A stretch of DNA of 64,000 nucleotides from Candidatus Cloacimonadota bacterium (lineage in GTDB: Bacteria > Cloacimonadota > Cloacimonadia > Cloacimonadales > TCS61): positions 8,830 through 72,829 of the forward strand of contig JAUXIJ010000004.1 of the NCBI GenBank assembly GCA_030621085.1. Direction: 5' to 3'. The notes under the pieces were generated by a model, which was given only the letters and a program-made list of their open reading frames with translations, ran no database searches and was not told the DNA's origin. Every line of letters starts with the position of its first letter. Within the stretch, counting starts at the first letter, position 1. The position numbers and the translations under genes were made by a program. Of this stretch, positions 1 to 39,647 are shown in pieces.

Positions 1-2358
1 AACATTTCCGACAGATATTTCTGAAACTATGTTACCTGTTTGGTTCATAGGAATAAAGATGGGATCAGGATTTACAAATTCAGAAGTTATTATAAATATA
101 CCAGATGGATAATTCCCATTGCCTACTATTTCAAGTTTCCCATCATCATTCACATCCTCGATAACGATAGAAATGATTGAATCACAATCGACCTCCGTTG
201 TAGATATAATATTTCCTTCATTATCCCATATATAAATCATGTTTGTTATATCAACTGCTATTATCTCTTTATTACCATCTTCTGTTAAATCTGCAAAAGC
301 AATTTTAGCAGTTACAGGGTTATTTACTGTGCTCAATGAAGTAAAAGTGCCATTATCATATAAATAAATATTACCGTCAGTTCCATTTTCAAAAGAAGAA
401 CCAACAATCATTTCATCCAAACCATCATTATCAATGTCACCAATTGTCATTTCGGTTGTTATTTCTTCATTTTGTGATATTGGAACTGAAGCAAAAGGTG
501 ATGAAACCTGTGCCCTTACAGGAACAATGAAAGGATGTGATTGAGAATATGTTTCTCCATTTTGTTTTGTGATTTCAAGATGCAAGATTAATTCAACATC
601 TCTTAATGATGATCCAACTTCAGATATTGTTATACTCCCACTGTTTTCCACAATTTCATATTGATTTATTGTGCCCCAGCTTGCGCTATTTTCATTAATT
701 TCAATTTCATCAGTTTCGTCAGCTTCGATATAACCCGTAATGGAAAGATTAGGCTGCCACCAATTTTTCAAAGATATGTGTACTTCTACATTATCATTTG
801 CAAATTCAAGAAATGTAAGCCCATTATAAGTAATTTCCTGTGTGGTAATATTTGGGTGTGGATCATCCCATTCAGTTAAAGCACGATATGCATTAATTCT
901 ACCTGCACCTAATCTTCCAATATATTCCGGATTTGTAGATTCAATGTTATCTGCTGTACCATATAATATAGTTATCAAATCGTCATTATTCATCTGACCG
1001 CTAATGATTTCATCATAATACTTAGCTTTCAATAAAGCTAAAAGACTTGCAACAAAGGGCCCAGACATAGATGTGCCCTGACAGAAATCATAATAAGGTT
1101 CGGGTATTCCATTTGGTTCCCAACTACCAAATTGATACTTTGGAGGTGAAGTATTAGGAGGTAAAGGAGTTAGATAGTAACTTTTATAATTTGTATGTGT
1201 TGGTATTGTACTTAAAAAAGCTTCAGGAGAATGTGCATTTTCAATTGAGTAAATACCGGCACCTCCGGGTGCAGTAATTGTTACCCAGTCCGCATATGTA
1301 GAGTAAAATGCTTTTTCATCATACATATTAGAAGCAGCAACATTTATAACTCCCGGTCTGCTGGCAGGAGCATTTATCGATCCTGTCCAATCTGACCTAT
1401 GGTTTCCTGCAGAAGCTACTACAATACAATTATTATCATATGCCACAGCTAAAATTGAATCAATATATGCTATTAATGGATCCCCAGGATTAAATGGCCA
1501 TGGATATCCCCAGCTATTGTTAATAACATCAGCTCCATACTCAGCAGCCCAGAGCAGACCTTCTCCTGTGTTTGTAGCTCTACCGTAATTGTTGCCTGGA
1601 TTCCATCTAAAAACTTTTACCGGCAGGATCTTAATATTCGGATGCCAACCGCAAAGTGATGCTATTCCTTCATTATTATTACTGGTTGCTGCCACTATTC
1701 CTGCAACGTGCGTGCCGTGACCTTTATCGTCATAGGCAGGTAAAGGAAATCCTACTGGAGAAAACACATTATGACTTATGGGCTCTCCATTTTCATTCTT
1801 CATGATATTTTCTGTAAGATCTTGATGGATATCAAATTGCGTATGAGTAGAGTCGCAGATATCTACTCCGGTATCTACTACTGCTACAATAATCGTGTCA
1901 GGCGGATTACAATCGTGATCCCAGGCATCTTCTGCCTGTACAATATGAAGAGGCCATTGGTGTTCCTGGTAATATTCATCATTGGGAACTTCATAAAGTT
2001 CAACTTTGATATCCTTAAAAGCTTCAATAACATTTTCTTCTGACTCTGACTGGAAGTCTGATATGATCATATCAAGGTCTACTTCTTCAGGAAAATCACA
2101 AGTATAAATATTCTGGAAAAATTCTCTATCTGTAAAAGTAAATCTTCTTTTTAGTTCAGTAATTTGATACTGAATAGCCAATTCATTAAACCATTCCTGT
2201 TCTGTTTCGATGATCCCGTCTTCACGGATGGTAATTGTACTAAATTCATTCGTAACCTTGAACACTATTGTTCCGGGCACATAAGATTCATCTGCATTTG
2301 CAAATAAAGAGATAACAAATAAAACTAAAATAACTAAAACTACAATTTTCTTTTTCAT
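1..2358 (-). CDS. S8 (subtilisin-like) serine peptidase. The 5' end is complete and the C-terminus runs off the window start. It has a signal peptide, an I9-like propeptide, the catalytic domain and FG-GAP/VCBS-like repeats.
   Basis: Absent from the ORF track because there is no stop codon inside the window. My own translation from ATG at 2356-2358 (RBS GGAGG 8 nt upstream) gives MKKKIVVLVILVLFVISLFANADESYVPGTIVFKV.... Catalytic motifs are VAVVDTGVD, HGTHVAGIVAA and GTSMSGPFVA. Downstream repeats include GDIDNDGLDE and EDVNDDGKLE. Confidence 0.9.
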   Translation of the reverse strand, partial: MKKKIVVLVILVLFVISLFANADESYVPGTIVFKVTNEFSTITIREDGIIETEQEWFNELAIQYQITELKRRFTFTDREFFQNIYTCDFPEEVDLDMIISDFQSESEENVIEAFKDIKVELYEVPNDEYYQEHQWPLHIVQAEDAWDHDCNPPDTIIVAVVDTGVDICDSTHTQFDIHQDLTENIMKNENGEPISHNVFSPVGFPLPAYDDKGHGTHVAGIVAATSNNNEGIASLCGWHPNIKILPVKVFRWNPGNNYGRATNTGEGLLWAAEYGADVINNSWGYPWPFNPGDPLIAYIDSILAVAYDNNCIVVASAGNHRSDWTGSINAPASRPGVINVAASNMYDEKAFYSTYADWVTITAPGGAGIYSIENAHSPEAFLSTIPTHTNYKSYYLTPLPPNTSPPKYQFGSWEPNGIPEPYYDFCQGTSMSGPFVASLLALLKAKYYDEIISGQMNNDDLITILYGTADNIESTNPEYIGRLGAGRINAYRALTEWDDPHPNITTQEITYNGLTFLEFANDNVEVHISLKNWWQPNLSITGYIEADETDEIEINENSASWGTINQYEIVENSGSITISEVGSSLRDVELILHLEITKQNGETYSQSHPFIVPVRAQVSSPFASVPISQNEEITTEMTIGDIDNDGLDEMIVGSSFENGTDGNIYLYDNGTFTSLSTVNNPVTAKIAFADLTEDGNKEIIAVDITNMIYIWDNEGNIISTTEVDCDSIISIVIEDVNDDGKLEIVGNGNYPSGIFIITSEFVNPDPIFIPMNQTGNIVSEISVGNV

Positions 2359-2370
2359 GATAAAATCCTC

Positions 2371-3405
2371 CTATTTAATTAAAATCATTTTATTAAGTTT
2401 GGAACAAAAGTTATCTGATTTAATTCGATAAAAATAAACACCTGAGCAGAATTTTTCCGCATTCCAAATAACTAACGACTGTAATGAATTAATTGTTAAT
2501 TGCTCCACTTTTTGTCCCTTTATATTATAAATCTCAATAAAAGGGTTTTCGATATCAACGAGTAATTCATACTTGATAGTTGTTGATGGATTAAAAGGAT
2601 TGGGAAAGTTTGACAATGAAATCAGATTATTTTTAATAAAGTTAGTTTCTATAGAATTTGTTTCATTAGAAAAAAACAAATAAAGCGTTGGTTTTATTAC
2701 ATCGTAAGGATGTCCGCTTGAAGTCATAAATCCCACATTATCATAAAGATCATCCCAGTCGGTATCAATGCCATCGAAGTCTATTCTGTATTGGGTTTTA
2801 TCTCTGCTTAATTCATAATCTTGGATAACACTGGAAGTAACATCGAGATAGCGATAACCAACTTCACCACTTTCAGTCATTACTCCTATATTATGCTGAT
2901 ATGTGTAAGGATTGCCTGTATCTCCCTTTCCCCAGTCTCCCACATCCAATTCGCTGCCGTAATCTATGTGGCTTACAATACACCGGATTGTATCACCTCC
3001 GGGAACATCCCAAACCGGAAAATCCTGGGGATTGGTCTGATAAAATCCACTATTCCCTGTGCTGTAATGCTGATAGAGACGGACATAAACACTATCTACC
3101 TGGTAACCTTCCGGAATTTCCGGCAAGAAGAACGAAATGTAAGATCGACTGTATGAATTATTATCAGAATTAAGGGGAGGCGCTATTCCATTATCCCCAA
3201 TATCACCAGCGAACATATCATACATCCAATTATCTATAAAAAAAAACTGCCCTGATTGGCTAAAGCAAATTTGTCCATCCAGCAGCGGATCTGAGTAAAC
3301 GGAATCAATGATGGTGTCGGCAGAGAGAAAGGAAAAAGGTGAAAGGAGAAAGGTAAAAGAAAAAATTAAAATAACATGTTTCAATTTCATAGCTACCTCC
3401 TTCAA
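2371..3405 (-). CDS. Secreted T9SS-cargo protein, array paralog P1. The passenger domain resembles a DNRLRE/CBM96-like beta-sandwich by motif order only.
   Basis: Signal peptide, then ADTIIDSVYS. Family motifs are SYISFFLPEIPEGY..DSVYVRLYQ, GGDTIRCIVSHIDYG, GYRYLDVT and TQYRI. The C-terminal NFPNPFNPSTTI...IYNIKGQK...GVYFYRI...MILIK is a T9SS sorting-domain signature. RBS GGAGGTAGCTATG. Confidence 0.85.
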   Translation of the reverse strand: MKEVAMKLKHVILIFSFTFLLSPFSFLSADTIIDSVYSDPLLDGQICFSQSGQFFFIDNWMYDMFAGDIGDNGIAPPLNSDNNSYSRSYISFFLPEIPEGYQVDSVYVRLYQHYSTGNSGFYQTNPQDFPVWDVPGGDTIRCIVSHIDYGSELDVGDWGKGDTGNPYTYQHNIGVMTESGEVGYRYLDVTSSVIQDYELSRDKTQYRIDFDGIDTDWDDLYDNVGFMTSSGHPYDVIKPTLYLFFSNETNSIETNFIKNNLISLSNFPNPFNPSTTIKYELLVDIENPFIEIYNIKGQKVEQLTINSLQSLVIWNAEKFCSGVYFYRIKSDNFCSKLNKMILIK

Positions 3406-3473
3406 TATCTCAGAAGTTTTAATTTCATTTTGAATAGACCACTTAAACGTTTCTATTATGTATTTTTAAAGAG

Positions 3474-3773
3474 TCAAGAAAAAATTATATAAAGATTTAC
3501 ATCTTCAGGAAAATCACAGGTATAAATATTCTGAAAAAAATCTCTGTCTGTAAAAGTAAATCTTCTTTTTAATTCAGTAATTTGATACTGAATCGCCAAT
3601 TCATTAAACCATTCCTGTTCTGTTTCGATGATCCCGTCTTCACGGATGGTAATTGTACTAAATTCATTCGTAACCTTGAACACTAATGTTCCGGGCACAT
3701 AAGATTCATCTGCATTTGCTAATAATAGTGCAAATGCGTATAAAATGATTAAAGCTAAAATTGTTCTTTTCAT
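3474..3773 (-). CDS. Propeptide-only duplicate of the S8 peptidase 5' end (signal peptide plus I9-like propeptide, 99 aa). It is either a stand-alone inhibitor/chaperone-like ORF or a gene fragment.
   Basis: About 230 nt (roughly 3497-3718) are nearly identical to 2085-2305 inside the 1-2358 peptidase gene. The ORF keeps its own RBS (GGAGGAAAAGATG) and signal peptide, but ends just after ...CDFPEDV, before any catalytic domain. Confidence 0.5.
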   Translation of the reverse strand: MKRTILALIILYAFALLLANADESYVPGTLVFKVTNEFSTITIREDGIIETEQEWFNELAIQYQITELKRRFTFTDRDFFQNIYTCDFPEDVNLYIIFS

Positions 3774-3784
3774 CTTTTCCTCCT

Positions 3785-4795
3785 TTAATGAATTATAACA
3801 ATTTTTTTAATAACTGCCTGTTTACCATCAGAAGCTCTCATGAAGTAAATACCTGATGGTAGATTTTGGGTACTGAATTCAATTTCTTCTGTACATTTAA
3901 TATTACCATTGAAGATAGATCTTAATTTTTGTCCTTTAATATTGAAAATTCCAAGATTTATAAAGCATTCTTTTTTTATTGAGAGCAAGATCTTAACTGA
4001 ATTGGAAATTGGATTTGGAAAAATCTGATAAGTAAAATTTGAGTTCACTACAATACAATGATCATCTGTTGTGGTATCTTCATAGAAAGTGAAAAATAGT
4101 TGTGGTCGATGATAAGTAACCCATGAATTTGAAGTTTTGAAACCCACATTATCATAAAGATCATCCCAGTCCGTATCGATGCCATCAAAGGCAATTCTGT
4201 ATTGGGTTTTGTCTCTATTTATTTCATAATCCTGCAATACGCTGGAAGTTAAGTTTAGATAGCGGTAACCATCTTCGCCACTTTCAGTCATTACTCCTAT
4301 ATTATGCTGATATGTATTAGGATTACCTATATCTCCATTTTCCCAGTCTCCCACATCCAATTCGTTGCCGTAATCTATATGGCTTACAATACACCGGATT
4401 GTATCACCTCCGGTTACATCCCACACCGGGAAATCCTGGGGATCGGTCTGATAAAATCCACTATTCCCTGTGCTGTAATTTTGATAGAGACGGACATAAA
4501 CACTATCTACCTCGTAACCTTCCGGAATTTCCGGCAAGAAGAACGAAATGTAAGATCGGCTGTAGGAATTATTGTCAGAATTAAGGGGTGGCGCTATTCC
4601 ATTATCTCCAATATCTCCTGCTCCCATATCATACATCCAATTATTTACAAAAAATCCCTGATTCTGTTGGCTATATCCGATATAACCATCCAAAACTGGT
4701 GTAGCATAAACGCTGTCGATGATTGTGTCTGCTCTAACCGGATGAGATAAAATTATAAACAACAGAATTGTTAGAATCAGGCATAGGTTTTTCAT
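3785..4795 (-). CDS. Secreted T9SS-cargo protein, array paralog P2. It is closest to P1 but carries a different C-terminal sorting-domain subtype.
   Basis: The track ORF 3785-4831 begins MSGQIRRDKEGMMK. The first 12 codons translate the conserved leader. The likely start is the second ATG (4793-4795), 5 nt after GGAGG. The passenger is highly similar to P1 (GDIGDNGIAPPLNSDNNSYSRSYISFFLPEIPEGY). The CTD is IFPNPISNSV...IFNIKGQK...GIYFMRA...KKIVIIH. Confidence 0.85.
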   Translation of the reverse strand: MKNLCLILTILLFIILSHPVRADTIIDSVYATPVLDGYIGYSQQNQGFFVNNWMYDMGAGDIGDNGIAPPLNSDNNSYSRSYISFFLPEIPEGYEVDSVYVRLYQNYSTGNSGFYQTDPQDFPVWDVTGGDTIRCIVSHIDYGNELDVGDWENGDIGNPNTYQHNIGVMTESGEDGYRYLNLTSSVLQDYEINRDKTQYRIAFDGIDTDWDDLYDNVGFKTSNSWVTYHRPQLFFTFYEDTTTDDHCIVVNSNFTYQIFPNPISNSVKILLSIKKECFINLGIFNIKGQKLRSIFNGNIKCTEEIEFSTQNLPSGIYFMRASDGKQAVIKKIVIIH

Positions 4796-4800
4796 CATTC

Positions 4801-4858
4801 CCTCCTTGTCACGGCGTATCTGACCACTCACGAGTGGTACAGAGAAGTCGGACTATTT
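4801..4858 (-). promoter_or_regulatory. Conserved intercistronic leader element, copy 1 (P3 to P2 junction): previous stop codon, hairpin, then RBS.
   Basis: Minus-strand sequence is TAGTCCGACTTCTCTGTACCACTCGTGAGTGGTCAGATACGCCGTGACAAGGAGG. The inverted repeat ACCACTC/GAGTGGT lies at 4824-4839. The core is identical in the four copies. Confidence 0.55.
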
Positions 4859-5806
4859 TAACAGCAGGCATTTACCTGTTGCAGTTTGGATTCCGACTGT
4901 AATCTCATAAAGATAAATACCGGAAGACAAACCATCTGCATTCCAGATAATTGAATTATGAGCACTATTTAAGGAAAAGGTTTCAATTATTTGCCCTTTG
5001 ATATTATAGATCACAATCTCTGCATCCTTTGTGTCTCTACAAGAAATTTTAAATGAGATAGTAGTTTCCGGGTTGAAAGGATTAGGGTAATTGGATAAAT
5101 AAATCTGATTATCCGGTAATTGCTCATTTGAAATATTCGAATTTTCTTCAATTATATAAATTACATAAGGTTTTAAATCCATTGATGTATCCGATGTTTT
5201 AAAGAAAAGTGCATCTACATACTGATCTTCATCCATATCTATTGCAAGTCTCAAACGATACTGGGTAAATGGTCTTGCATTTTCAATGTCATCCAGAACA
5301 AATTCAGTAACTTCTATAGAACGCCATCCTACTTCCGGTGTATCACTGATAGTTCCTATAAAATGGAGCGGTGTCAGGAAAAAATCAGTTTCATCCAGAG
5401 TGTATCCATAATCAAGATGCTCGATAAAGCAGGGTGGCTCAAAAGTACCTGAAGCCATATCAAAGATAGGATAGTTCCCTACGATTCCATTACCTTCAGA
5501 CGCAAACTGATAAATATATATATATGATGAAGTCAGAGAATAACCTTCTGGTATTACAGGTAATTCAAACGCAAAAAAAGATCTGTTGAAGAAATAATCC
5601 CATAATATATTACTATAATAATCTCCCACAATTCCATAAGGTGAATTTGCTCCAATTCCGAAATAGCCTAATCCCGGGCTATGTGCGATAGTACCATCTA
5701 AATATGCTATGCTGTAAACAGTATCTATTATAGTTTCCTGCGCTGTTAATAATGAGAAATGAAAAATCATAATAATAAGTATAAGAAAAAAAAGTTTTAA
5801 TTTCAT
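4853..5806 (-). CDS. Secreted T9SS-cargo protein, array paralog P3 (the most divergent member).
   Basis: Signal peptide, then QETIIDTVYS. Motifs are NRSFFAFELPVIPEGY, FIEHLDYG, GWRSIEVTEFVL and TQYRLR. The CTD is NYPNPFNPETTISF...IYNIKGQ...GIYLYEI...TATGKCLLLK. Confidence 0.85.
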   Translation of the reverse strand: MKLKLFFLILIIMIFHFSLLTAQETIIDTVYSIAYLDGTIAHSPGLGYFGIGANSPYGIVGDYYSNILWDYFFNRSFFAFELPVIPEGYSLTSSYIYIYQFASEGNGIVGNYPIFDMASGTFEPPCFIEHLDYGYTLDETDFFLTPLHFIGTISDTPEVGWRSIEVTEFVLDDIENARPFTQYRLRLAIDMDEDQYVDALFFKTSDTSMDLKPYVIYIIEENSNISNEQLPDNQIYLSNYPNPFNPETTISFKISCRDTKDAEIVIYNIKGQIIETFSLNSAHNSIIWNADGLSSGIYLYEITVGIQTATGKCLLLK

Positions 5807-6012
5807 ACCTACCTCCAGAAAAAATAGTTTTAGTAAAAATTAAGAATATCTCAAGCTGTTTCAGTTTAGTTTTTCAAATCCAAGTTTCTAAATTCTATCA
5901 ATTATCCGATGACAATAGTTTTCTATATAATTTCTATCTCACACAATAAGCAAAATTTACTAATGGAAGTATTTGTCAAATTATTTTTCATTTTCATATT
6001 AATTATTGTGTT
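5807..6012 (-). repeat. Upstream (promoter-region-like) repeat, copy A, immediately 5' of P3.
   Basis: About 170 nt align with 10177-10350 (same orientation) and with 34590-34760 (inverted). An example is the shared string GATAAGAATTTAGAAAC(C/T)TGGATTTG(A/G)AAAACTAAACTGAAA. It ends directly at the P3 RBS. Confidence 0.7.
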
Positions 6013-6999
6013 TTATTTCAACAGCAGGCATTTGCCTGTTGCTGTTTGAATTCCGGTTTTTATCTTGTAAAAATATATGCCGGAACTTTGGTTTGATGCA
6101 TCCCAGATTACAGAGTATCTTCCTGCTGTCTGGATTTCATTTACGATAGTTTCGATCAATTGACCTTCTACATTGAATATTTGAAGCATAACATTTGAAT
6201 TCTGCGAAAGCTCATATTGTATTTTTGTTTCAGGATTAAAAGGGTTAGGGAAATTCTTACAGTTTAAATTATTAGTTTGAACCAAAACATTTTCTATTAC
6301 TAAACCATTAGATAAATAGAAAAATAGATTTGGCCAGTAGCTTTCTATCCAAGAATCTGCTGTAGAAAATGCTACAAAATCAGGATGATCATCCAAATCC
6401 GTATCTATTTGAAAAGAGATGCGATATTGTGTTAAAGTTCTTTCCTGTTGATAATCGTATAATATGCAATCTGTAACATCGAGATAACGGTATCCGTCTT
6501 CACCACTCTCTGTTACCGTTCCTGCATTGTGTGTGAAAGTATAAGGATTTCCGACATCTCCTTTTTCCCAGTCTCCAGGGTCTAATTCAAAACCATAATC
6601 GATATGATTTAAAATACATTTTATCGTATCTCCACCTGCTACGTTCCATACAGGGAAATACTGTGTAGGATATCCCCCAAGGGCATCGAACTGGTAGAGT
6701 CTCATCGATACACTATCAATCTCATATCCAGTAATTATTTCAGGTAATTCAAAAGATATAAATGCTCTTTTTGTCGAATTTGAGGGTGGAGAAACAGGTA
6801 TTGAACTATCTCCCAAATCTCCTGCTTTCATAGCGTATGTCCAAGCATTTAATGACCAAAACTGTCCGGTTGTAGTATAACACATATTACCATCTAATTC
6901 AGGTACGGAATAAACGCTGTCTATTATGGTATCTGCTCTAATCGGACGAGATAAAAAGAACAAAAGTAAAACCGATGCTATTAAGAGTATCTTTTTCAT
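6013..6999 (-). CDS. Secreted T9SS-cargo protein, array paralog P4.
   Basis: The track ORF 6013-7035 starts in the leader (MSGQIRRDKVEMMKK). The likely start is ATG 6997-6999. Family motifs are present. The CTD is NFPNPFNPETKI...IFNVEGQ...GIYFYKI...TATGKCLLLK. Confidence 0.85.
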   Translation of the reverse strand: MKKILLIASVLLLFFLSRPIRADTIIDSVYSVPELDGNMCYTTTGQFWSLNAWTYAMKAGDLGDSSIPVSPPSNSTKRAFISFELPEIITGYEIDSVSMRLYQFDALGGYPTQYFPVWNVAGGDTIKCILNHIDYGFELDPGDWEKGDVGNPYTFTHNAGTVTESGEDGYRYLDVTDCILYDYQQERTLTQYRISFQIDTDLDDHPDFVAFSTADSWIESYWPNLFFYLSNGLVIENVLVQTNNLNCKNFPNPFNPETKIQYELSQNSNVMLQIFNVEGQLIETIVNEIQTAGRYSVIWDASNQSSGIYFYKIKTGIQTATGKCLLLK

Positions 7000-7004
7000 C
7001 ATTT

Positions 7005-7062
7005 CCACCTTGTCACGGCGTATCTGACCACTCACGAGTGGTACAGCAAAGCCGGACTATTT
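7005..7062 (-). promoter_or_regulatory. Conserved intercistronic leader element, copy 2 (P5 to P4 junction).
   Basis: Same core as copy 1: TGTACCACTCGTGAGTGGTCAGATACGCCGTGACAAGGTGG. It begins at the P5 stop codon. Confidence 0.55.
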
Positions 7063-8064
7063 CATTATGATGATTTTTTTTGTAAAAACTTGATTATCTG
7101 TTTTTGCTTTTAGAAAATAAATTCCATTTGACAATTCTTTTGTATCAAAAAGAATTTCATTTTCTCCTCTTTCGATATTTCCTGTAAATACAGTTTGAAC
7201 TAACTGTCCTTTGATATTATATATTTTGATATTATATATTTTGACATTAATACTATACGTTTTTTTTGAGTATAACATAATTCTACAATTTTTTGATGTG
7301 GGGTTTGGATAAACTTGGAAATTAAAATCTGAGTAATTTAATAAATTATTGTTAACACCTAAATTATCTGATAAATAAAAAAATAATTGTGGTTTATGAG
7401 CATCAATTCCGGAATCTCCAGACTTAAATGCAACTAAATCCCAACAACTATCATTATCACTATCTATTTGAAAAGAGATACGGTATTGTGTTAATGATCT
7501 TTCCTGTTGATAATCGTATAATATGCAATCTGTAACATCGATATAACGGTATCCGTCTTCACTACTCTCTATTACAGTTCCTGCATTGTGCGTGAAAGTA
7601 TAGGGATTTCCGACATTTCCTTTTTCCCAATCTTCTTCGTCTAATTCATCACCATAATCAATGTGGCTTAGAATACATTTTATAGTATCTCCCCCTGGAA
7701 TATTCCATTCAGGAAAACCAAAACCTCCCAATTCTGATCCGTTACATATTGCTCTATTCTGGTATAAACGAATATACACACTGTCTAAATCACAATTTCC
7801 TGGTATTTGAGGTAATTCAAAGGATACAAATGATCGATTACATGAATTTGGTGGGGGTCCGGGTATTAACGGAACTCCAGTATCTCCTGATTGCATTTCA
7901 TAGGTAAAGTTATTCAGTAATTCCGGTTCTCCTTCCGGATTAAAAAGAATTGTTCCATCCAGTTCCGGCACGGAATAAACGCTGTCTATTATTGTGTCTG
8001 CAATAATTGGATGAGATAAAATTATAAAAAACAGAATTGAAAATATTAGGTAGAGTTTTTTCAT
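7057..8064 (-). CDS. Secreted T9SS-cargo protein, array paralog P5.
   Basis: The track ORF 7057-8100 starts in the leader. The likely start is ATG 8062-8064 (AAGGAG plus 6 nt). The N-terminal third is near-identical to P7 and the middle third to P4. The CTD is VYPNPTSKN...IYNIKIYNIKGQ...GIYFLKA...KKIIIMK. Confidence 0.85.
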   Translation of the reverse strand: MKKLYLIFSILFFIILSHPIIADTIIDSVYSVPELDGTILFNPEGEPELLNNFTYEMQSGDTGVPLIPGPPPNSCNRSFVSFELPQIPGNCDLDSVYIRLYQNRAICNGSELGGFGFPEWNIPGGDTIKCILSHIDYGDELDEEDWEKGNVGNPYTFTHNAGTVIESSEDGYRYIDVTDCILYDYQQERSLTQYRISFQIDSDNDSCWDLVAFKSGDSGIDAHKPQLFFYLSDNLGVNNNLLNYSDFNFQVYPNPTSKNCRIMLYSKKTYSINVKIYNIKIYNIKGQLVQTVFTGNIERGENEILFDTKELSNGIYFLKAKTDNQVFTKKIIIMK

Positions 8065-8070
8065 ATTAAT

Positions 8071-8127
8071 CTCCTTGTCACGGCGTATCTGACCACTCAC
8101 GAGTGGTACAGAGAAGCCGGACTATTT
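8071..8127 (-). promoter_or_regulatory. Conserved intercistronic leader element, copy 3 (P6 to P5 junction).
   Basis: Same core sequence and hairpin as copy 1. It begins at the P6 stop codon (8122-8124). Confidence 0.55.
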
Positions 8128-9114
8128 CAACAACAGGCATTTGCCTGTTGCTGTTTGAGTTCCGATATTTATACTGTAAAAATAAATCCCGGAACTCATA
8201 TCAGATGCATTCCAGATTACAGAGTATGTTCCTACTGTCTGGATTTCATTTAAGATAGTTTCAATCAATTGCCCTTTTACATTATATATTTGAATTAAAA
8301 TATACTCATCTTGTTCTAAAAAGTATTCAAAGGTTGTTTCAGGATTAAAAGGATTTGGAAAAATTCTACAATTCATACTATTTTTATTTTCTAAAACATT
8401 TCCTGTTCCCACACCATTAGATAAATAAAAAAATAGTTTTGGTATAGCATAATCAAATGTGCCATTTCCTGTTATAAACCCTACCTTATCCCAGAGAGAA
8501 TCCCCATCTGTATTTACTTCAAAAGATATACGATATTGGGTTAGTATTCTTCCTAAATCATAATCCTGCAATACACAATCGGTTACATCGAGGTAACGAT
8601 AGCCATCTTCACCGCTTTCCGTTATTGTTCCAACATTATGAGTATAAGTATAAGGATTACCAATACTACCTTTTTCCCAGTCTCCAAAATCAAGTTGAAA
8701 TCCGTAGTCAATGTGGCTCATAATGCATTTTATAGTATCCCCACCAGGAATATTCCACTCGGGAAAATCAAGACCGGTTACCCCATTATAATTACCACAA
8801 CTGGTATGTTGATATAATCGAACATATACACTATCTATCTGATAGCTCTCAGGGTACTCAGGTAATTCAAAAGATAGAAATGATCTTGTTGTAGAATTAA
8901 TTGGTTGAGCTGGAATCCAAGGTTCACCTGTATCTCCTATGATCATAGAATATGTCCAGTTATTCAGTGAATAAGGTAATCCTTCAGGTGTAAAACACAT
9001 ATCTCCATCCAATTCAGGAACAGCGTATACGCTATCGATTATTATGTCTGCTCTAATTGGATGAAATAAAATTATAAACAACAGAATTGTTAGAATCAGG
9101 CAAAGGTTTTTCAT
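8122..9114 (-). CDS. Secreted T9SS-cargo protein, array paralog P6.
   Basis: The track ORF 8122-9150 starts in the leader. The likely start is ATG 9112-9114. Its signal peptide is almost identical to that of P2. The middle third is close to P7 and the CTD is close to P4 (…TATGKCLLLK). Confidence 0.85.
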   Translation of the reverse strand: MKNLCLILTILLFIILFHPIRADIIIDSVYAVPELDGDMCFTPEGLPYSLNNWTYSMIIGDTGEPWIPAQPINSTTRSFLSFELPEYPESYQIDSVYVRLYQHTSCGNYNGVTGLDFPEWNIPGGDTIKCIMSHIDYGFQLDFGDWEKGSIGNPYTYTHNVGTITESGEDGYRYLDVTDCVLQDYDLGRILTQYRISFEVNTDGDSLWDKVGFITGNGTFDYAIPKLFFYLSNGVGTGNVLENKNSMNCRIFPNPFNPETTFEYFLEQDEYILIQIYNVKGQLIETILNEIQTVGTYSVIWNASDMSSGIYFYSINIGTQTATGKCLLLK

Positions 9115-9120
9115 CATTCC

Positions 9121-9177
9121 CTCCTTGTCACGGCGTATCTGACCACTCACGAGTGGTACAAAAAAGCCGGACTTTTA
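9121..9177 (-). promoter_or_regulatory. Conserved intercistronic leader element, copy 4 (P7 to P6 junction).
   Basis: Same core and hairpin as copy 1. It begins at the P7 stop codon (9175-9177). Confidence 0.55.
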
Positions 9178-10164
9178 ATGAATTATAGCAATTTTTTTCA
9201 TTACTTGTGTTTCTCCATCATAATTGAGTTTAAGAAAATAAATACCACTACTTAAACTCGCCATATTTACGAAAACTTTGTTTTTTCCTTGTTTACCAGG
9301 ACTACTGACTATATTTTTTACTTTTTGCCCTTTAATGTTATAAAGTTCAATATATATTGGCTTTTGAGTTAAAAGGTTAAAATAAATATTTGTAGAATTA
9401 TTTATTGGATTGGGAATAATTGTGACACCATTTTCTTTTGATACTTCGTCCTCAACACCTGTACCATCAGACAAATAGAAAAATAATTTTGGACGTTTAC
9501 TCTCATTATTAGCTTCAAAAGTTTTAATAGTAATCCCGTCCTTTAGAGAATCCCCATCTGTATTAACTTCAAAAGCTATGCGGTATTGCGTTAAAATTCG
9601 TCCCATATCATAATCTTGTAAAGCATATTCTGTCACATTCAGATAACGATAACCTTCTATACCACTTTCAGTTATTGTACCGATATTATGAGTAAAAGTA
9701 TCAGGATTTCCGATATCACCTTTTTCCCAATCTTCAAAATCAAGTTGAAAGCCGTAATCTATATGACTCATTATGCACTTTATTGTATCTCCTCCGGTAA
9801 TATTCCATTCGGGAAAACCAAAACCTCCCAATTCTGATCCGTTACAAAATGCTCTATGCTGGTATAAACGAATATACACACTGTCTAAATCATAGTTCTC
9901 CGGAATTTGAGGTAATTCAAAGGATACAAATGAGCGGTTACAAGAATTTGGTGGGGGACCGGGTACTAACGGAACTCCGGTATCTCCTGCTTGCATTTGA
10001 TAGGTAAAGTTATTCAGTAATTCCGGTTCTCCTTCCGGATTAAAAAGAATTGTTCCATCCAGTTCCGGCACGGAATAAACGCTGTCGATGATTGTGTCTG
10101 AAAATAAGAATGTAAAATGGAAAATGAAGAATGTAAAAAGTAAAATGGTTAGTATTAATTTCAT
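9175..10164 (-). CDS. Secreted T9SS-cargo protein, array paralog P7 (first gene of the array).
   Basis: Signal peptide, then SDTIIDSVYSVPELDG. Family motifs are present. The CTD is IIPNPINNSTNI...LYNIKGQK...GIYFLKL...KKIAIIH. RBS GGAGGTAGCTATG. Confidence 0.85.
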   Translation of the reverse strand: MKLILTILLFTFFIFHFTFLFSDTIIDSVYSVPELDGTILFNPEGEPELLNNFTYQMQAGDTGVPLVPGPPPNSCNRSFVSFELPQIPENYDLDSVYIRLYQHRAFCNGSELGGFGFPEWNITGGDTIKCIMSHIDYGFQLDFEDWEKGDIGNPDTFTHNIGTITESGIEGYRYLNVTEYALQDYDMGRILTQYRIAFEVNTDGDSLKDGITIKTFEANNESKRPKLFFYLSDGTGVEDEVSKENGVTIIPNPINNSTNIYFNLLTQKPIYIELYNIKGQKVKNIVSSPGKQGKNKVFVNMASLSSGIYFLKLNYDGETQVMKKIAIIH

Positions 10165-10571
10165 AGCTACCTCCTAAAACATTATTATTGCAACAGTTTT
10201 GAAGATCACGTTTTTCAGTTTAGTTTTCCAAATCCAGGTTTCTAAATTCTTATCAATTTTACGATGATACCAGTTTCTCTATAATTCATTTAGCAAAAAA
10301 CCAAATCCTTGTTTACTAAAATTAAAAAATTATGTCAATTACTTTTTTAAAATAAATCCTGTTTAGCACAAATGACAGAACAATGTTCTGTCACTACAAT
10401 ATTTTTTTTAGCAGTACGTATTATACTGATGCGTCAGAAACCTTGCGATTCAATCTACTCCGATAAATCGGAGAACCTGCTGAAGACAGAATGATGTTTT
10501 GTTACTACATTGAACCATTGAAAAGGTCAAGCAAGAAGAATGTTCCCATTAGAGACCATTTTCAAGGTTTT
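10165..10571 (-). repeat. Upstream repeat, copy B (longest copy), between the EEP-gene remnant and P7.
   Basis: Read on the minus strand, it matches 34474-34760 (plus strand) from the stop codon onward. Shared strings are AAAACCTTGAAAA(C/T)GGTCTCT, the palindrome GACAGAACATTGTTCTGTC, AATTGACATA and GATAAGAATTT(A/G)GAAACCTGGATTTG. It carries an extra ~95-nt internal insertion or duplication at about 10395-10490. Confidence 0.7.
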
Positions 10572-10989
10572 TTATTCAAGAACCAATTTCAATACCACAG
10601 GTCGGTGGTCGGTGATATATTTGTACCTGGCACCATTTCCGCCTTCCATAAATTTATCGATAGTAATTGTTTTTATATCTGAACCCTTTTTTTCAAATTC
10701 ATCAAACAGCTCGTTGGAAATTAGAATATGATCGAGATGACTGCGATATTTCCAATATGGATAGCTCCAGTTGGCTGTGCTGTCCGCTGCAATGAACCAG
10801 TCTGCAAAATAGTAGTTCTGTTTATCATAAACATATTGATACCATAATGATTTTGCAAAGACTATTTTTTGTCTTCGCTTGTTCTCGAAAACATGATTAC
10901 AATGTAAACATTTATACCGTTGTTTGCTATTCCATTTACTATTTTTTTGTATGATAAGATTTGCATTTGGGACACTGTTTATTACTCAT
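10572..10989 (-). pseudogene. Chimeric, frameshifted pseudogene. A CxxC...CxxC zinc-ribbon N-terminus (of the type found on transposases) is joined to the 3' third of an EEP-family gene.
   Basis: My own translation: ATG at 10987-10989 (RBS GGAG) gives MSNKQCPKCKSYHTKK, then TAG at 10939-10941 right after an A7 run (10942-10948). Shifting one base gives ...NSKWNSKQRYKCLHCNHVFENKRRQKIVFAKSLWYQYVYDKQNYYFADWFIAADSTANWSYPYWKYRSHLDHILISNELFDEF...ITDHRPVVLKLVLE*. From DKQNYYFADW onward this is near-identical to the C-terminus of the 33550-34473 protein. Confidence 0.6.
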
Positions 10990-11230
10990 TTTTATTCTCC
11001 TAAATAAAAATACGTACTTAAATACTTAACATATTTATATTTAACACCATTTTTAGCAACAAACTTTTGTCCATTACGCCAAAGAAAAACAGAAAAAATG
11101 TGTCAACCATATTTAGGACTGGACAAATTGATTCCCCTTCTTTGTTTGAGAGAAGGGGTAAGGGGATGAGTTAAACCCCCACCAATTCAGCGGGGGTTCG
11201 GTTTTTTAATTTCTAACAAACTATTAATTA

Positions 11231-39209: not shown

Positions 39210-39647
39210 TCATCCCTCAGTCTTCGCCAAGGCTACGACCCGACACGCCAGCCCCTTCTCTCCAACATAGAAGGGGAGCGAATTATTTCTTATAAAAGTA
39301 TTTTTCAATTTTTCTATAACATCCTCAATATGATAAAGAACTTCATCATTCGAAAATCTAATAATTCTATATCCAAGTTGACCAATAATTTGCTCTCTCA
39401 TTTTATCATAATCCTTCTGATTTTCATGAATACCACCATCAATTTCTATAACAAGTTTCATTTTATGGCAGCAGAAATCTGCGATGAAGAATCTAATTTG
39501 TTTATTCCATTCAAAGCCAATTGGATATTGCCGTAATATTTTAAAACCATCAATTTGCCTGTTACGAACAAGCTTCCATAAAGATTTTTCGGCTTTTGTT
39601 TGATTCTTTCTGAATCTTCGACAAATTACTCTAATATCTTCTTTCAT
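39210..39647 (-). CDS. DUF559 (Vsr-like endonuclease fold) domain protein.
   Basis: TKAEKSLWKLVRNRQIDGFKILRQYPIG..FIADFCCHKMKLVIEIDGGIH...D..R...L...GY.IIRFSNDEV is the DUF559 pattern. The C-terminal tail reads into a GGGG-rich dispersed repeat. Confidence 0.8.
   Translation of the reverse strand: MKEDIRVICRRFRKNQTKAEKSLWKLVRNRQIDGFKILRQYPIGFEWNKQIRFFIADFCCHKMKLVIEIDGGIHENQKDYDKMREQIIGQLGYRIIRFSNDEVLYHIEDVIEKLKNTFIRNNSLPFYVGEKGLACRVVALAKTEG

Follow-up and report, generated by a model that had tools for sequence, protein, structure and literature searches.

A small hairpin repeat with REP-like features at the gene junctions of a Cloacimonadota paralog array

Lineage specificity is the usual assumption for small palindromic repeats, and REP sequences are normally restricted to a genus or species. 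RAYTs are single-copy and typically flanked by REPs. REPs inside operons stabilize upstream mRNA (malE-malF), and Liang, Rudd and Deutscher reportedly found in 2015 that a gene is expressed less when a REP lies within ~15 nt of its stop codon. The ends of IS200/IS605 elements and their miniature derivatives (PATEs) are hairpins bound and cut as single-stranded DNA by HUH/Y1 transposases, and integron attC sites are defined by the core sites R'' (RYYYAAC) and R' (GTTRRRY). REPs have been described as carrying a tag (GTAG or CGTC in the described super-families), a stem, di- or trinucleotides that are not complementary, and self-complementary loops that are closed by GC and vary in length, with intragenic copies and with stem subfamilies that differ by complementary changes (PMC3733652).

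The stretch of Cloacimonadota DNA analyzed here (64,000 nt, hereafter the window) contains the following array.

2371..10164, minus strand: seven paralogous genes (~320-340 aa), all encoding a signal peptide and a C-terminal T9SS sorting domain
9175-10164, minus strand: G1
8122-9117, minus strand: G2
7057-8064, minus strand: G3
6013-7002, minus strand: G4
4853-5806, minus strand: G5
3785-4798, minus strand: G6
2371-3390, minus strand: G7

The sorting domain was assigned from Pfam Por_Secre_tail and from homologues named as Cloacimonadota T9SS sorting-domain proteins; amino-acid identity between paralogs is 30-63%. ORFs on the 5′ side of the array encode a xanthine/uracil permease, RNase PH, a signal peptidase, a radical SAM protein and one product with no Pfam match, and the other flank is an S8 peptidase.

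The original prediction placed one hairpin element in four intercistronic gaps (4801-4858, 7005-7062, 8071-8127 and 9121-9177), beginning TCCG(G/A)CTT and ending in a Shine-Dalgarno (SD) sequence. A whole-window search with the exact 38-nt core TGTACCACTCGTGAGTGGTCAGATACGCCGTGACAAGG returned four matches, all on the minus strand, at 4804-4841, 7008-7045, 8073-8110 and 9123-9160. Shuffled sequences gave an expectation of zero and no fifth core was present in the window even when ≤3 mismatches were allowed, so the four-gap element is real; its coordinates and 5′ part were correct in the sequence, as was its placement ahead of non-first genes (G2, G3, G4 and G6). The copies below were scored with CM R1, a covariance model trained without any window sequence.

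9123..9171, minus strand: copy A, between G1 (stop TAA 9177-9175) and G2 (ATG 9117), UCCGGCUUUUUUGUACCACUCGUGAGUGGUCAGAUACGCCGUGACAAGG, exact core; CM R1 28.7 bits, E 1.3e-4; predicted fold -21.7 kcal/mol, z -2.9
8073..8121, minus strand: copy B, between G2 (stop TAG 8124-8122) and G3 (ATG 8064), exact core; CM R1 36.4 bits, E 2.1e-6; predicted fold -23.7 kcal/mol, z -4.0
7008..7056, minus strand: copy C, between G3 (stop TAG 7059-7057) and G4 (ATG 7002), exact core, SD AAGGUGG; CM R1 31 bits, E 3.7e-5; filled counterpart of the empty junction at L001 7900-7915
4804..4852, minus strand: copy D, between G5 (stop TAG 4855-4853) and G6 (ATG 4798), exact core, G5 of stem P1 changed to A (A.C mismatch); CM R1 32 bits, E 2.2e-5; predicted fold -16.5 kcal/mol, z -0.9, which alone is not significant
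39217..39248, plus strand: fifth copy, degenerate short form UCAGUCUUCGCCAAGGCUACGACCCGACACGCC; CM R1 26.7 bits, E 3.8e-4
4801..4807, minus strand: composite SD AAGGAGG, apparently AAG from the element tail plus GAGG of the pre-existing junction
9120-9126, 7005-7011 and 8071-8076: equivalent composite SD sites, from the sequence and the comparison of filled and empty junctions

CM R1 thus recovered the four junction copies (E 2e-6 to 1e-4, predicted folds of -16.5 to -23.7 kcal/mol) and the degenerate fifth, giving five known copies in the window's own genome, within the 64 kb scanned. The fifth runs antisense to the genes on either side, overlaps a listed DUF559 ORF at the 3′ end of that ORF and has a tail differing from CAAGG; its UCAGUC variant type also occurs in Victivallaceae (L141/L145).

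Every junction copy sits between a stop codon and an SD plus ATG, with the hairpin starting 0-3 nt past the upstream stop and ending just 5′ of the SD. The description as a discrete conserved hairpin ending in the SD was borne out, the 38-nt core having a mean pairwise identity of 100% across the four aligned junction units (best other 38-nt window in the same units 0.83, mean 0.59) and the SD being AAGGAGG or AAGGAG in three copies and AAGGTGG in one. That the element starts at the stop codon itself is right for the 4804, 7008 and 8073 copies and wrong for the 9123 copy, which abuts a codon AAG, the stop TAA lying one codon further 5′. After the hairpin comes CAAGGAGG rather than a U-tract, and neither a T-tract after the hairpin nor a terminator-like site was found in 2300-10700; an intrinsic terminator is ruled out, in agreement with the original prediction.

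The 6-7 bp inverted repeat first proposed underestimates the structure, in which an internal loop is predicted to separate an outer stem from an inner stem of 10 bp. The lower stem P1, the sole inverted repeat of the motif, pairs UCCGGC with GCCG-U-GA and leaves one bulged U; a conserved 3x3 internal loop (UUC facing UAC) follows, and the 3′ tail is CAAG(G). The apical stem P2 is free in sequence and length, from near-absent (2 bp plus 3 nt) to ~13 bp, and is swapped for unrelated stems among family members; in the window's lineage it is the 10-bp stem UCUG-U-ACCACU[CGUG]AGUGGUCAGA. Elements range from a 31-nt short form to the 49 nt of the window copies. In copy B, the P1 5′ strand is 8121-8116, loop UUC 8115-8113, P2 8112-8088 with tetraloop CGUG 8101-8098, loop UAC 8087-8085, the P1 3′ strand GCCGUGA 8084-8078 (bulged U 8080) and tail CAAGG 8077-8073. 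Across the family, 91.5% of cells were paired versus 27-51% with partners slid, and the compensatory stem changes that had been suggested as a check were present in 6 of 9 pairs (U-A/C-G, G-C/C-G, G-C/A-U). These fold and covariation values were reached in none of 500 shuffles, and the covariation supports the predicted fold.

The assumption that the element is specific to this paralog array did not survive, as it belongs to a dispersed repeat family. The pattern TCCGRCTT-N5-35-ACGCCGTGACAAGG matched 53 metagenome loci and at least 116 genome loci (in fact more), in Lentisphaerota, Kiritimatiellia, Opitutales, Planctomycetota, Cloacimonadota and Sulfomarinibacteraceae. The genomic GC of the host phyla runs from 0.32 to 0.70 with stem, bulge, internal loop and tail almost unchanged, and CG and CT flanking the insert are nearly universal though outside the pattern constraints. 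Invariance of stem, bulge, loop and tail across phyla points to a conserved putative partner. Tandem copies are joined at a fixed point, L080 holds a BIME-like cluster of three copies within 130 nt, and at least 17 loci lie in one Victivallaceae MAG, many at contig ends. Against Rfam, the window produced no match at the gathering score, the motif in 20 loci none at E ≤ 1, L029 60-400 none at E ≤ 10, and L094 and window positions 6950-9250 chance-level matches only; the literature search found no paper describing the element. No catalogued RNA family corresponds to it.

Evidence for insertion came from a related array (L001), where AAATAG is followed directly by GAGGAAATGATG and the window instead has AAATAG, the element and then GTGGAAATGATG. 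The related junction being empty, the element corresponds to a precise 48-nt indel whose tail completes the SD, so that, at this one junction, it behaves as an insertion. Related arrays also have plain junctions lacking the element. No clear target-site duplication was seen at the filled/empty junction (AG at most). No transposase of any kind was found adjoining the copies, and approximate IS200-/RAYT-like queries (tblastn, 1.2 Mb of loci) gave one IS200-like fragment, 4 kb from a copy. The 150 flanking ORFs matched 167 Pfam families with no functional theme, and there was no transposase among the 25 families listed.

The closest likeness is to REPs. The element is an imperfect palindrome, GC-rich and short (31-49 nt), that can fold into a stem-loop and whose short form falls within the 20-40 bp REP size; it has many copies, in PVC genomes at least, almost always intergenic and occasionally intragenic, single, in tandem or as inverted pairs; and it shares the unpaired tag, the stem with its subfamilies, the trinucleotides that do not pair, and an inner loop that is closed by GC and self-complementary but variable in sequence. 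It differs in its unpaired end, CAAG(G) (CCTTG on the other strand) rather than GTAG/CGTC, in that no RAYT was found nearby by the approximate queries of 1.2 Mb of loci, in the strong sense bias of Cloacimonadota copies directly upstream of start codons, and in keeping the same 26 outer nt across phyla, a near-identity unusual for REPs, which are normally lineage-specific. GTAG does occur on the element's complementary strand, within the internal loop and not at the terminus. The element resembles IS200/IS605 ends and PATEs in being an imperfect hairpin that has an extrahelical base, carries a short conserved sequence at its foot and tolerates any apical sequence, but there is no left-end/right-end pair bounding a larger element, and no TnpA/TnpB gene was found in 1.2 Mb of flanks except the one IS200-like fragment. 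Phage T7 RNase III sites and operon stabilizer hairpins are likewise stable internal-loop hairpins between cistrons with no U-tract; those differ in being experimentally defined and not conserved in sequence between phyla. Riboswitches and other cis-regulatory RNAs differ in that no curated Rfam model matched and the element has no consistent position upstream of functionally related genes.

The best explanation of the four gaps is that each holds one copy of a small self-complementary repeat spread over several bacterial phyla. We lean, by a modest degree, toward a REP-like mobile hairpin family that was co-opted here as an intercistronic mRNA hairpin, with a putative mobilizing enzyme and a predicted effect on the RNA. 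The family would spread in the manner of a REP/MITE, with a hairpin-recognizing enzyme probably acting on the unit as folded single-stranded DNA; such an enzyme would account for the invariance of stem, bulge, loop and tail. Here the element may have landed between a stop codon and an SD, tandem duplication then carrying it along and gene conversion partly homogenizing the copies. Presumably transcribed within a polycistronic mRNA, its tail AAG plus the old GAGG would form the SD of the next gene, and the hairpin could act as a barrier to 3′ exonucleases protecting the upstream cistron, as a protective 5′ structure for the downstream cistron after any cleavage, and as an obstacle to be melted by terminating ribosomes. 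RNA processing or stability and translational control, two roles named in the original prediction, are candidates. The tail CAAG, the near-identity across phyla, the failure to find a neighboring transposase or a clear target-site duplication and the sense bias of low-GC copies count against the REP-like model, and a further observation is left unaccounted for by it: among the window copies the 3′ 38 nt are invariant and the 5′ 11 nt differ at four positions.

A rather unlikely alternative is a dedicated structured RNA whose reader, a conserved factor acting in trans (protein or ribosome), controls downstream translation initiation or mRNA stability, with PVC copies hitch-hiking in mobile DNA. 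Conservation of the unpaired UUC/UAC loop, bulged U and CAAG tail across phyla beside covarying stems resembles protein-binding RNA motifs, the SD is unpaired in all four predicted window folds, and P2 is identical or nearly so in two genomes with coding DNA no more than ~78% identical. Of ~20 copies in low-GC genomes (Cloacimonadota plus a few others), ~14 are sense, with CAAGG, the SD-forming tail, 5-13 nt before the start codon, a pattern more like selection for, or targeting of, the regions where translation starts than like random spread. Yet PVC copies, nearly all intergenic, fall with similar frequency in the four gene-orientation classes, and this indifference to orientation and the lack of a neighbor theme argue against a dedicated regulator of these genes. 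Downstream genes are also unrelated in function (T9SS proteins, pyrE/pyrF, BamA and unknowns in Cloacimonadota, and many others), some copies are antisense and one lies within a coding region, G.U content shows no asymmetry between strands and no sense-strand excess, and the precise presence/absence difference at a homologous junction fits a dedicated RNA poorly.

It is less probable still that the identical 38-49 nt serve mainly as a homology anchor at which unequal recombination, gene conversion or cassette exchange among the paralogs would cross over, whether RecA-dependent or site-specific and integron-like. Copies are direct repeats flanking cassette-like genes in a co-directional array, and the paralogs are mosaic (G4 and G2 are 85% identical over their C-terminal 181 nt and 63% as whole proteins). 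The role also draws some support from a ~100-nt tract running from P2 through the signal peptide that is 98/100 identical between the 4804 and 9123 copies, a pattern suggestive of exchange. An attC-like hairpin is suggested by the extrahelical bases (the bulged U), the unpaired central spacer and the variable terminal structure, but both GTTRRRY and RYYYAAC are absent from the 57-nt gaps, no integrase was found in the five 5′-side ORFs scanned, which begin beyond the 10.2-11.2 kb stretch between array and permease, or in the S8 peptidase gene, and the would-be cassettes are paralogs, each with its own SD. Outside arrays the element stands singly before unrelated genes, it is scattered in PVC genomes, and related arrays manage with plain junctions.

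That the element is a passive leftover of a recent tandem duplication or of gene conversion, devoid of properties of its own, is very improbable. The paralogs are in tandem with ~1050-nt periodicity and two copies bear signs of conversion, but the adjoining coding DNA is 39-83% identical versus 100% for the core. Another Cloacimonadota genome (L091) has an identical 49-nt copy ahead of an unrelated gene in a match to the window of only ~72 nt, and the outer 26 nt recur in several phyla, so the duplication-residue comparison raised by the original prediction favors an element; the residue reading is already contradicted by the family's matches in other genomes, the L091 copy and recovery of the window copies by a model built from foreign sequences. 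Scarcely credible is a recoding signal giving readthrough or ribosome bypass and fusion proteins: stop, element and ATG share one frame with no further stop at 4 of 4 junctions (stop-to-ATG spans of 60, 60, 57 and 57 nt), as does the short form in L001, but the shared frame follows from the common ancestry of the junctions, every downstream gene comes with an SD, ATG and signal peptide of its own and every upstream one with a complete sorting domain, the array in another genome (L137; three junction copies, two different P2) carries an in-frame TGA within the element, and relatives elsewhere are not beside stop codons.

Returning to the REP-like reading, a further and more tentative extension is that a conserved reader, either a hairpin-specific single-stranded DNA enzyme or an RNA-binding factor, keeps the ~26 outer nt across Cloacimonadota, the PVC superphylum, Acidobacteriota and others, and that in Cloacimonadota the hairpin may have been domesticated as a portable stop-hairpin-SD module setting cistron expression in secreted-protein operons. 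The element would illustrate how repeats reshape operons, in that it splits an existing SD, rebuilds it with its own tail and sits between stop and SD. The covariance model made here can be used to map the family, whose repeats break Lentisphaeria/Victivallaceae MAG assemblies. In one Victivallaceae subfamily the motif is carried inside a ~300-bp MITE-like unit bounded by CTGTTCCC terminal inverted repeats. The MSGQIRRDKE N-termini that the original prediction called artefactual are explained by a GTG inside the hairpin, which generates the ORF extension and has already yielded wrong N-termini in public records; one public annotation adopts the extension (P0001, 342 aa).

Homologues of the seven tandem paralogous genes G1-G7 are annotated in Cloacimonadota protein records, and the same array is also present in two JGI metagenomes. 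The array and the hairpin copies in the window are as follows:

G1 at 9175-10164 to G7 at 2371-3390, minus strand: array of seven paralogs of ~320-340 aa, each with a signal peptide and a T9SS C-terminal sorting domain
9123, 8073, 7008 and 4804, minus strand: 49-nt copies of the element, preceding G2, G3, G4 and G6
39217-39248, plus strand: fifth copy, a degenerate short form found by the covariance model R1, antisense to its neighbours

The 38-nt core TGTACCACTCGTGAGTGGTCAGATACGCCGTGACAAGG was found exactly four times in the 64-kb window, in the four intercistronic gaps named in the original prediction, with no further copy even when three mismatches were allowed; the observation is real and above chance. 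As had been claimed, it is invariant while the coding sequences have diverged: identity across the four aligned junction units was 100% (best other 38-nt window 0.83, mean 0.59), and the array proteins are 30-63% identical to one another. The upstream stop codon lies 0-3 nt before the start of each copy, and the copy's end, 4-5 nt 5′ of the ATG, reads AAGGAGG, AAGGAG or AAGGUGG. Upstream stop, element and downstream ATG share one frame with no intervening stop at all four junctions (4853-4798, 7059-7002, 8124-8064 and 9177-9117), with a stop-to-ATG distance of 60 nt at two and 57 nt at two; at 9123 the codon is AAG where the other copies have TAG, with TAA, one codon earlier, as the actual stop. 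Since a variant of the element at L137, in another Cloacimonadota genome, has TGA in frame, the common reading frame probably reflects shared ancestry. A GTG within the hairpin produces the MSGQIRRDKE N-terminal extension of the ORFs, correctly described as artefactual; public gene calls use this GTG as start (P0001, 342 aa, MSGQIRRDKEGMMKN...; also L176, 1315-1590), and the true start of these paralogs is almost certainly the ATG 3′ of the SD.

A common fold was obtained for all four junction copies, in which (G)UCCGGC pairs with GCCG-U-GA(C) as the outer stem, an internal loop leads to the inner stem (UCUG-U-ACCACU[CGUG]AGUGGUCAGA) and the SD stays unpaired, with folding energies of -16.5 to -23.7 kcal/mol and z-scores of -0.9 to -4.0. 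Public collections were searched with the pattern TCCGRCTT-N5-35-ACGCCGTGACAAGG, leaving the middle unconstrained. The pattern gave 53 loci in metagenomes, at least 116 in species-representative genomes and one low-scoring match in 2.9 million viral contigs, on which count a phage element was rejected; a handful of the lowest-scoring matches are probably chance. Hosts were Lentisphaeria/Victivallaceae, Kiritimatiellae, Opitutales, Puniceicoccaceae, Planctomycetales, Phycisphaerae, Cloacimonadota and Sulfomarinibacteraceae, with one Desulfobacteraceae MAG and one gammaproteobacterial MAG, and the GC content of the loci was 0.32-0.70. R1, trained on 54 sequences of which none came from the window, recovered all four junction copies (28.7-36.4 bits, E 1e-4 to 2e-6). 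The fifth copy is flanked by a DUF559 endonuclease-like gene on one side and an N6 methylase/Eco57I-type gene on the other, adjoining dprA; a link to DUF559 was rejected, as no locus contained a second one. GC-rich hairpins of the CCCCTTCT...AGAAGGGG type are present just past this copy, at 39252-39282, and again at 11125-11165, and may be another small repeat family.

Family members consist of a lower stem P1 (UCCGGC/GCCG(U)GA), a 3x3 internal loop (UUC/UAC), an apical stem P2 with a G-C closing pair and otherwise free sequence, and a CAAG(G) tail. The CG 3′ of CTT and the CT 5′ of ACGCC were left free by the search pattern yet are almost constant, the middle part being ~5 nt in some members and a hairpin of unrelated sequence in the rest. 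When matching was relaxed, the retrieved loci yielded variant copies with compensatory changes:

UCCGCC...GGCGGA
CCCGGC...GCCGUGG
UCAGUC...GCCCUGA versus UCUGUC...GCCCAGA
UUCA...UUAC versus UUCG...CUAC

In these 54 sequences, all distinct, 91.5% of cells were paired (27-51% with the partners slid), six of nine pairs had both-sided changes, and none of 500 shuffles matched the observed values. The pattern by which most of these sequences were gathered has P1 fixed, so it is the unconstrained secondary copies that supply the informative covariation. The element is a folded, covarying bipartite hairpin, and the compensatory stem changes that the original prediction had suggested looking for are present. 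G.U pairs in P2 showed no asymmetry by strand (21/333 versus 25/335), so strand assignment from them was rejected, and RNA and DNA cannot be told apart on these counts. Tandem copies outside the window invariably join as ...GUGACAA|UCCGGC.... One Lentisphaeria subfamily (L061, L095, L100 and others) has a fixed head-to-tail dimer, in which a second copy of another stem type (UCCGCC...GGCGGA, without the bulge and with a compensatory G-C to C-G change) stands 12 nt 3′ of a canonical one.

At L091, in the same Cloacimonadota genome as L137, a window-type element identical over 49 nt precedes an unrelated gene, and similarity to the window extends over only ~72 nt. L137 is a T9SS array with the element at three junctions, one copy being window-type with a single loop change and two having another P2, GUUCCGAA-AGAA-UUCGGAAC. 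Coding DNA of the two genomes is at most ~78% identical, so these copies exclude the alternative that the conservation is simple duplication residue. L001, a related Cloacimonadota scaffold with a homologous array, has one junction (TAGTCCGGCTTTGCTACGCTACGCCGTGACAAGG) that retains the outer part of the element with 5 nt in place of the inner hairpin; its remaining junctions are plain SD spacers. Because the L001 junction ...atcatcatactaaaaTAG|GAGGAAATGATG and the window junction at 7008, ...atcatcataatgaaaTAG|tccggc...gtgacaag|GTGGAAATGATG, have homologous flanks on both sides, the element is a precise 48-nt presence/absence difference, and the present SD is a composite of the element's AAG and an older GAGG. 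Family-wide, 16 of the 38 invariant core bases are constant; the remaining 22 (P2) are lineage-specific and are also retained in the second genome. From P2 through the signal-peptide region (4700-4841 versus 9020-9160), 98/100 positions agree between copies 4804 and 9123, with the G6 and G2 proteins only 49% identical overall, which indicates a gene conversion or recombination tract; the other two copies are more divergent downstream, with the core retained.

In PVC genomes the element is a dispersed intergenic repeat. One Victivallaceae MAG carries at least 17 loci, with copies frequently at contig ends. The four flanking-gene orientation classes are roughly equal in frequency, and few copies are overlapped by long ORFs. 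The 150 flanking ORFs matched 167 Pfam families without a common theme, and no transposase was among the 25 families listed. One subfamily lies within a ~300-bp unit edged by CTGTTCCC inverted repeats; others form tandem pairs, inverted pairs or small clusters. A MITE-like ~300-bp repeat, present at L094 (~1700-2060) and at seven more loci in one Victivallaceae MAG, has terminal inverted repeats (G)CTCTGTTCCC...GGGAACAGCG. Besides the motif it includes a long, perfect AT-rich hairpin, a second hairpin (CTCGCAGCT...AGCTGCGAG) and, in inverted orientation, a partial copy of the motif's 5′ half; it forms the end of many contigs in these Victivallaceae MAGs. In L015, a low-GC metagenome contig, one copy (1212-1242) lies antisense inside a 337-aa ORF, apparently in a linker region, and two head-to-tail copies (2146-2205) occupy the gap from a terminase-small-subunit-like ORF (judged by eye) to the next gene. 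At L020 a copy lies ~370 nt downstream of a tmRNA gene (Rfam 205.6 bits; sites 1126-1158, 1529-1882), counted from the gene's 3′ end. Mobile elements commonly integrate at such genes.

In Cloacimonadota and a few other low-GC loci, most copies are sense, with CAAGG 5-13 nt 5′ of the start codon of unrelated genes (T9SS proteins, a pyrE/pyrF fusion, unknowns); BamA has another sense copy ~150 nt upstream. This orientation and position bias, with the conservation of unpaired bases, favours the main rival explanation, in which the element is a dedicated RNA recognised by a conserved reader. We prefer spread as a REP/MITE-like unit, which may proceed via a hairpin-recognising enzyme; at the RNA level the intercistronic hairpin could act as an exonuclease barrier, a protective 5′ hairpin and an obstacle to terminating ribosomes. 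The family architecture is parallel to that of REPs (Di Nocera et al., PMC3733652); its tag and its identity across phyla set the family apart, as does the lack of a known RAYT. A RAYT/IS200 neighbourhood search over 1.2 Mb of loci around the copies, a weak test, was essentially negative.

Other candidates were rejected: a riboswitch or regulon (heterogeneous neighbouring genes), an integron (no core sites, no integrase among the flanking ORFs scanned) and a promoter or terminator (consensus scans at or below chance, the latter in line with the original prediction). Likenesses to preQ1-I, SAM/SAH and guanidine-III aptamers, the sarcin-ricin loop, a CsrA site, IS91 CAAG targets and a 16S rRNA GUCGUAACAAGG stretch passed no test and did not exceed chance. 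The motif matched no family in an Rfam 15 covariance search at gathering and permissive thresholds; literature searches gave only chance primer matches by sequence string, and nothing in full text for the motif or such a repeat in these taxa. Its covarying hairpin, family membership, insertion-like presence/absence, dispersed-repeat behaviour and composite SD are established by the analysis. The element is a kind of small palindromic repeat that is uncatalogued as far as the searched libraries show; its cross-phylum conservation is unusual for such repeats. The earlier description was essentially right, except that the element is not specific to the array.

Two further repeats were seen in the array. 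Several paralogs end in codons (..TATGKCLLLK*) that include a perfect 8-bp inverted repeat, CAACAGGC-AAAT-GCCTGTTG (window 8131-8150, ~6021-6045 and ~4861-4885; L001, L031, L043 and L137), which stops 9 nt 5′ of the stop codon, so that such junctions have two back-to-back hairpins; its absence from L091 shows that it does not belong to the element. Between G6 and G7, a 242-nt segment of the S8 peptidase N-terminus (gene 1-2358, minus strand) is duplicated (3484-3725 versus 2066-2307, 95% identity) and yields a 99-aa ORF (3474-3773) with no Pfam match.
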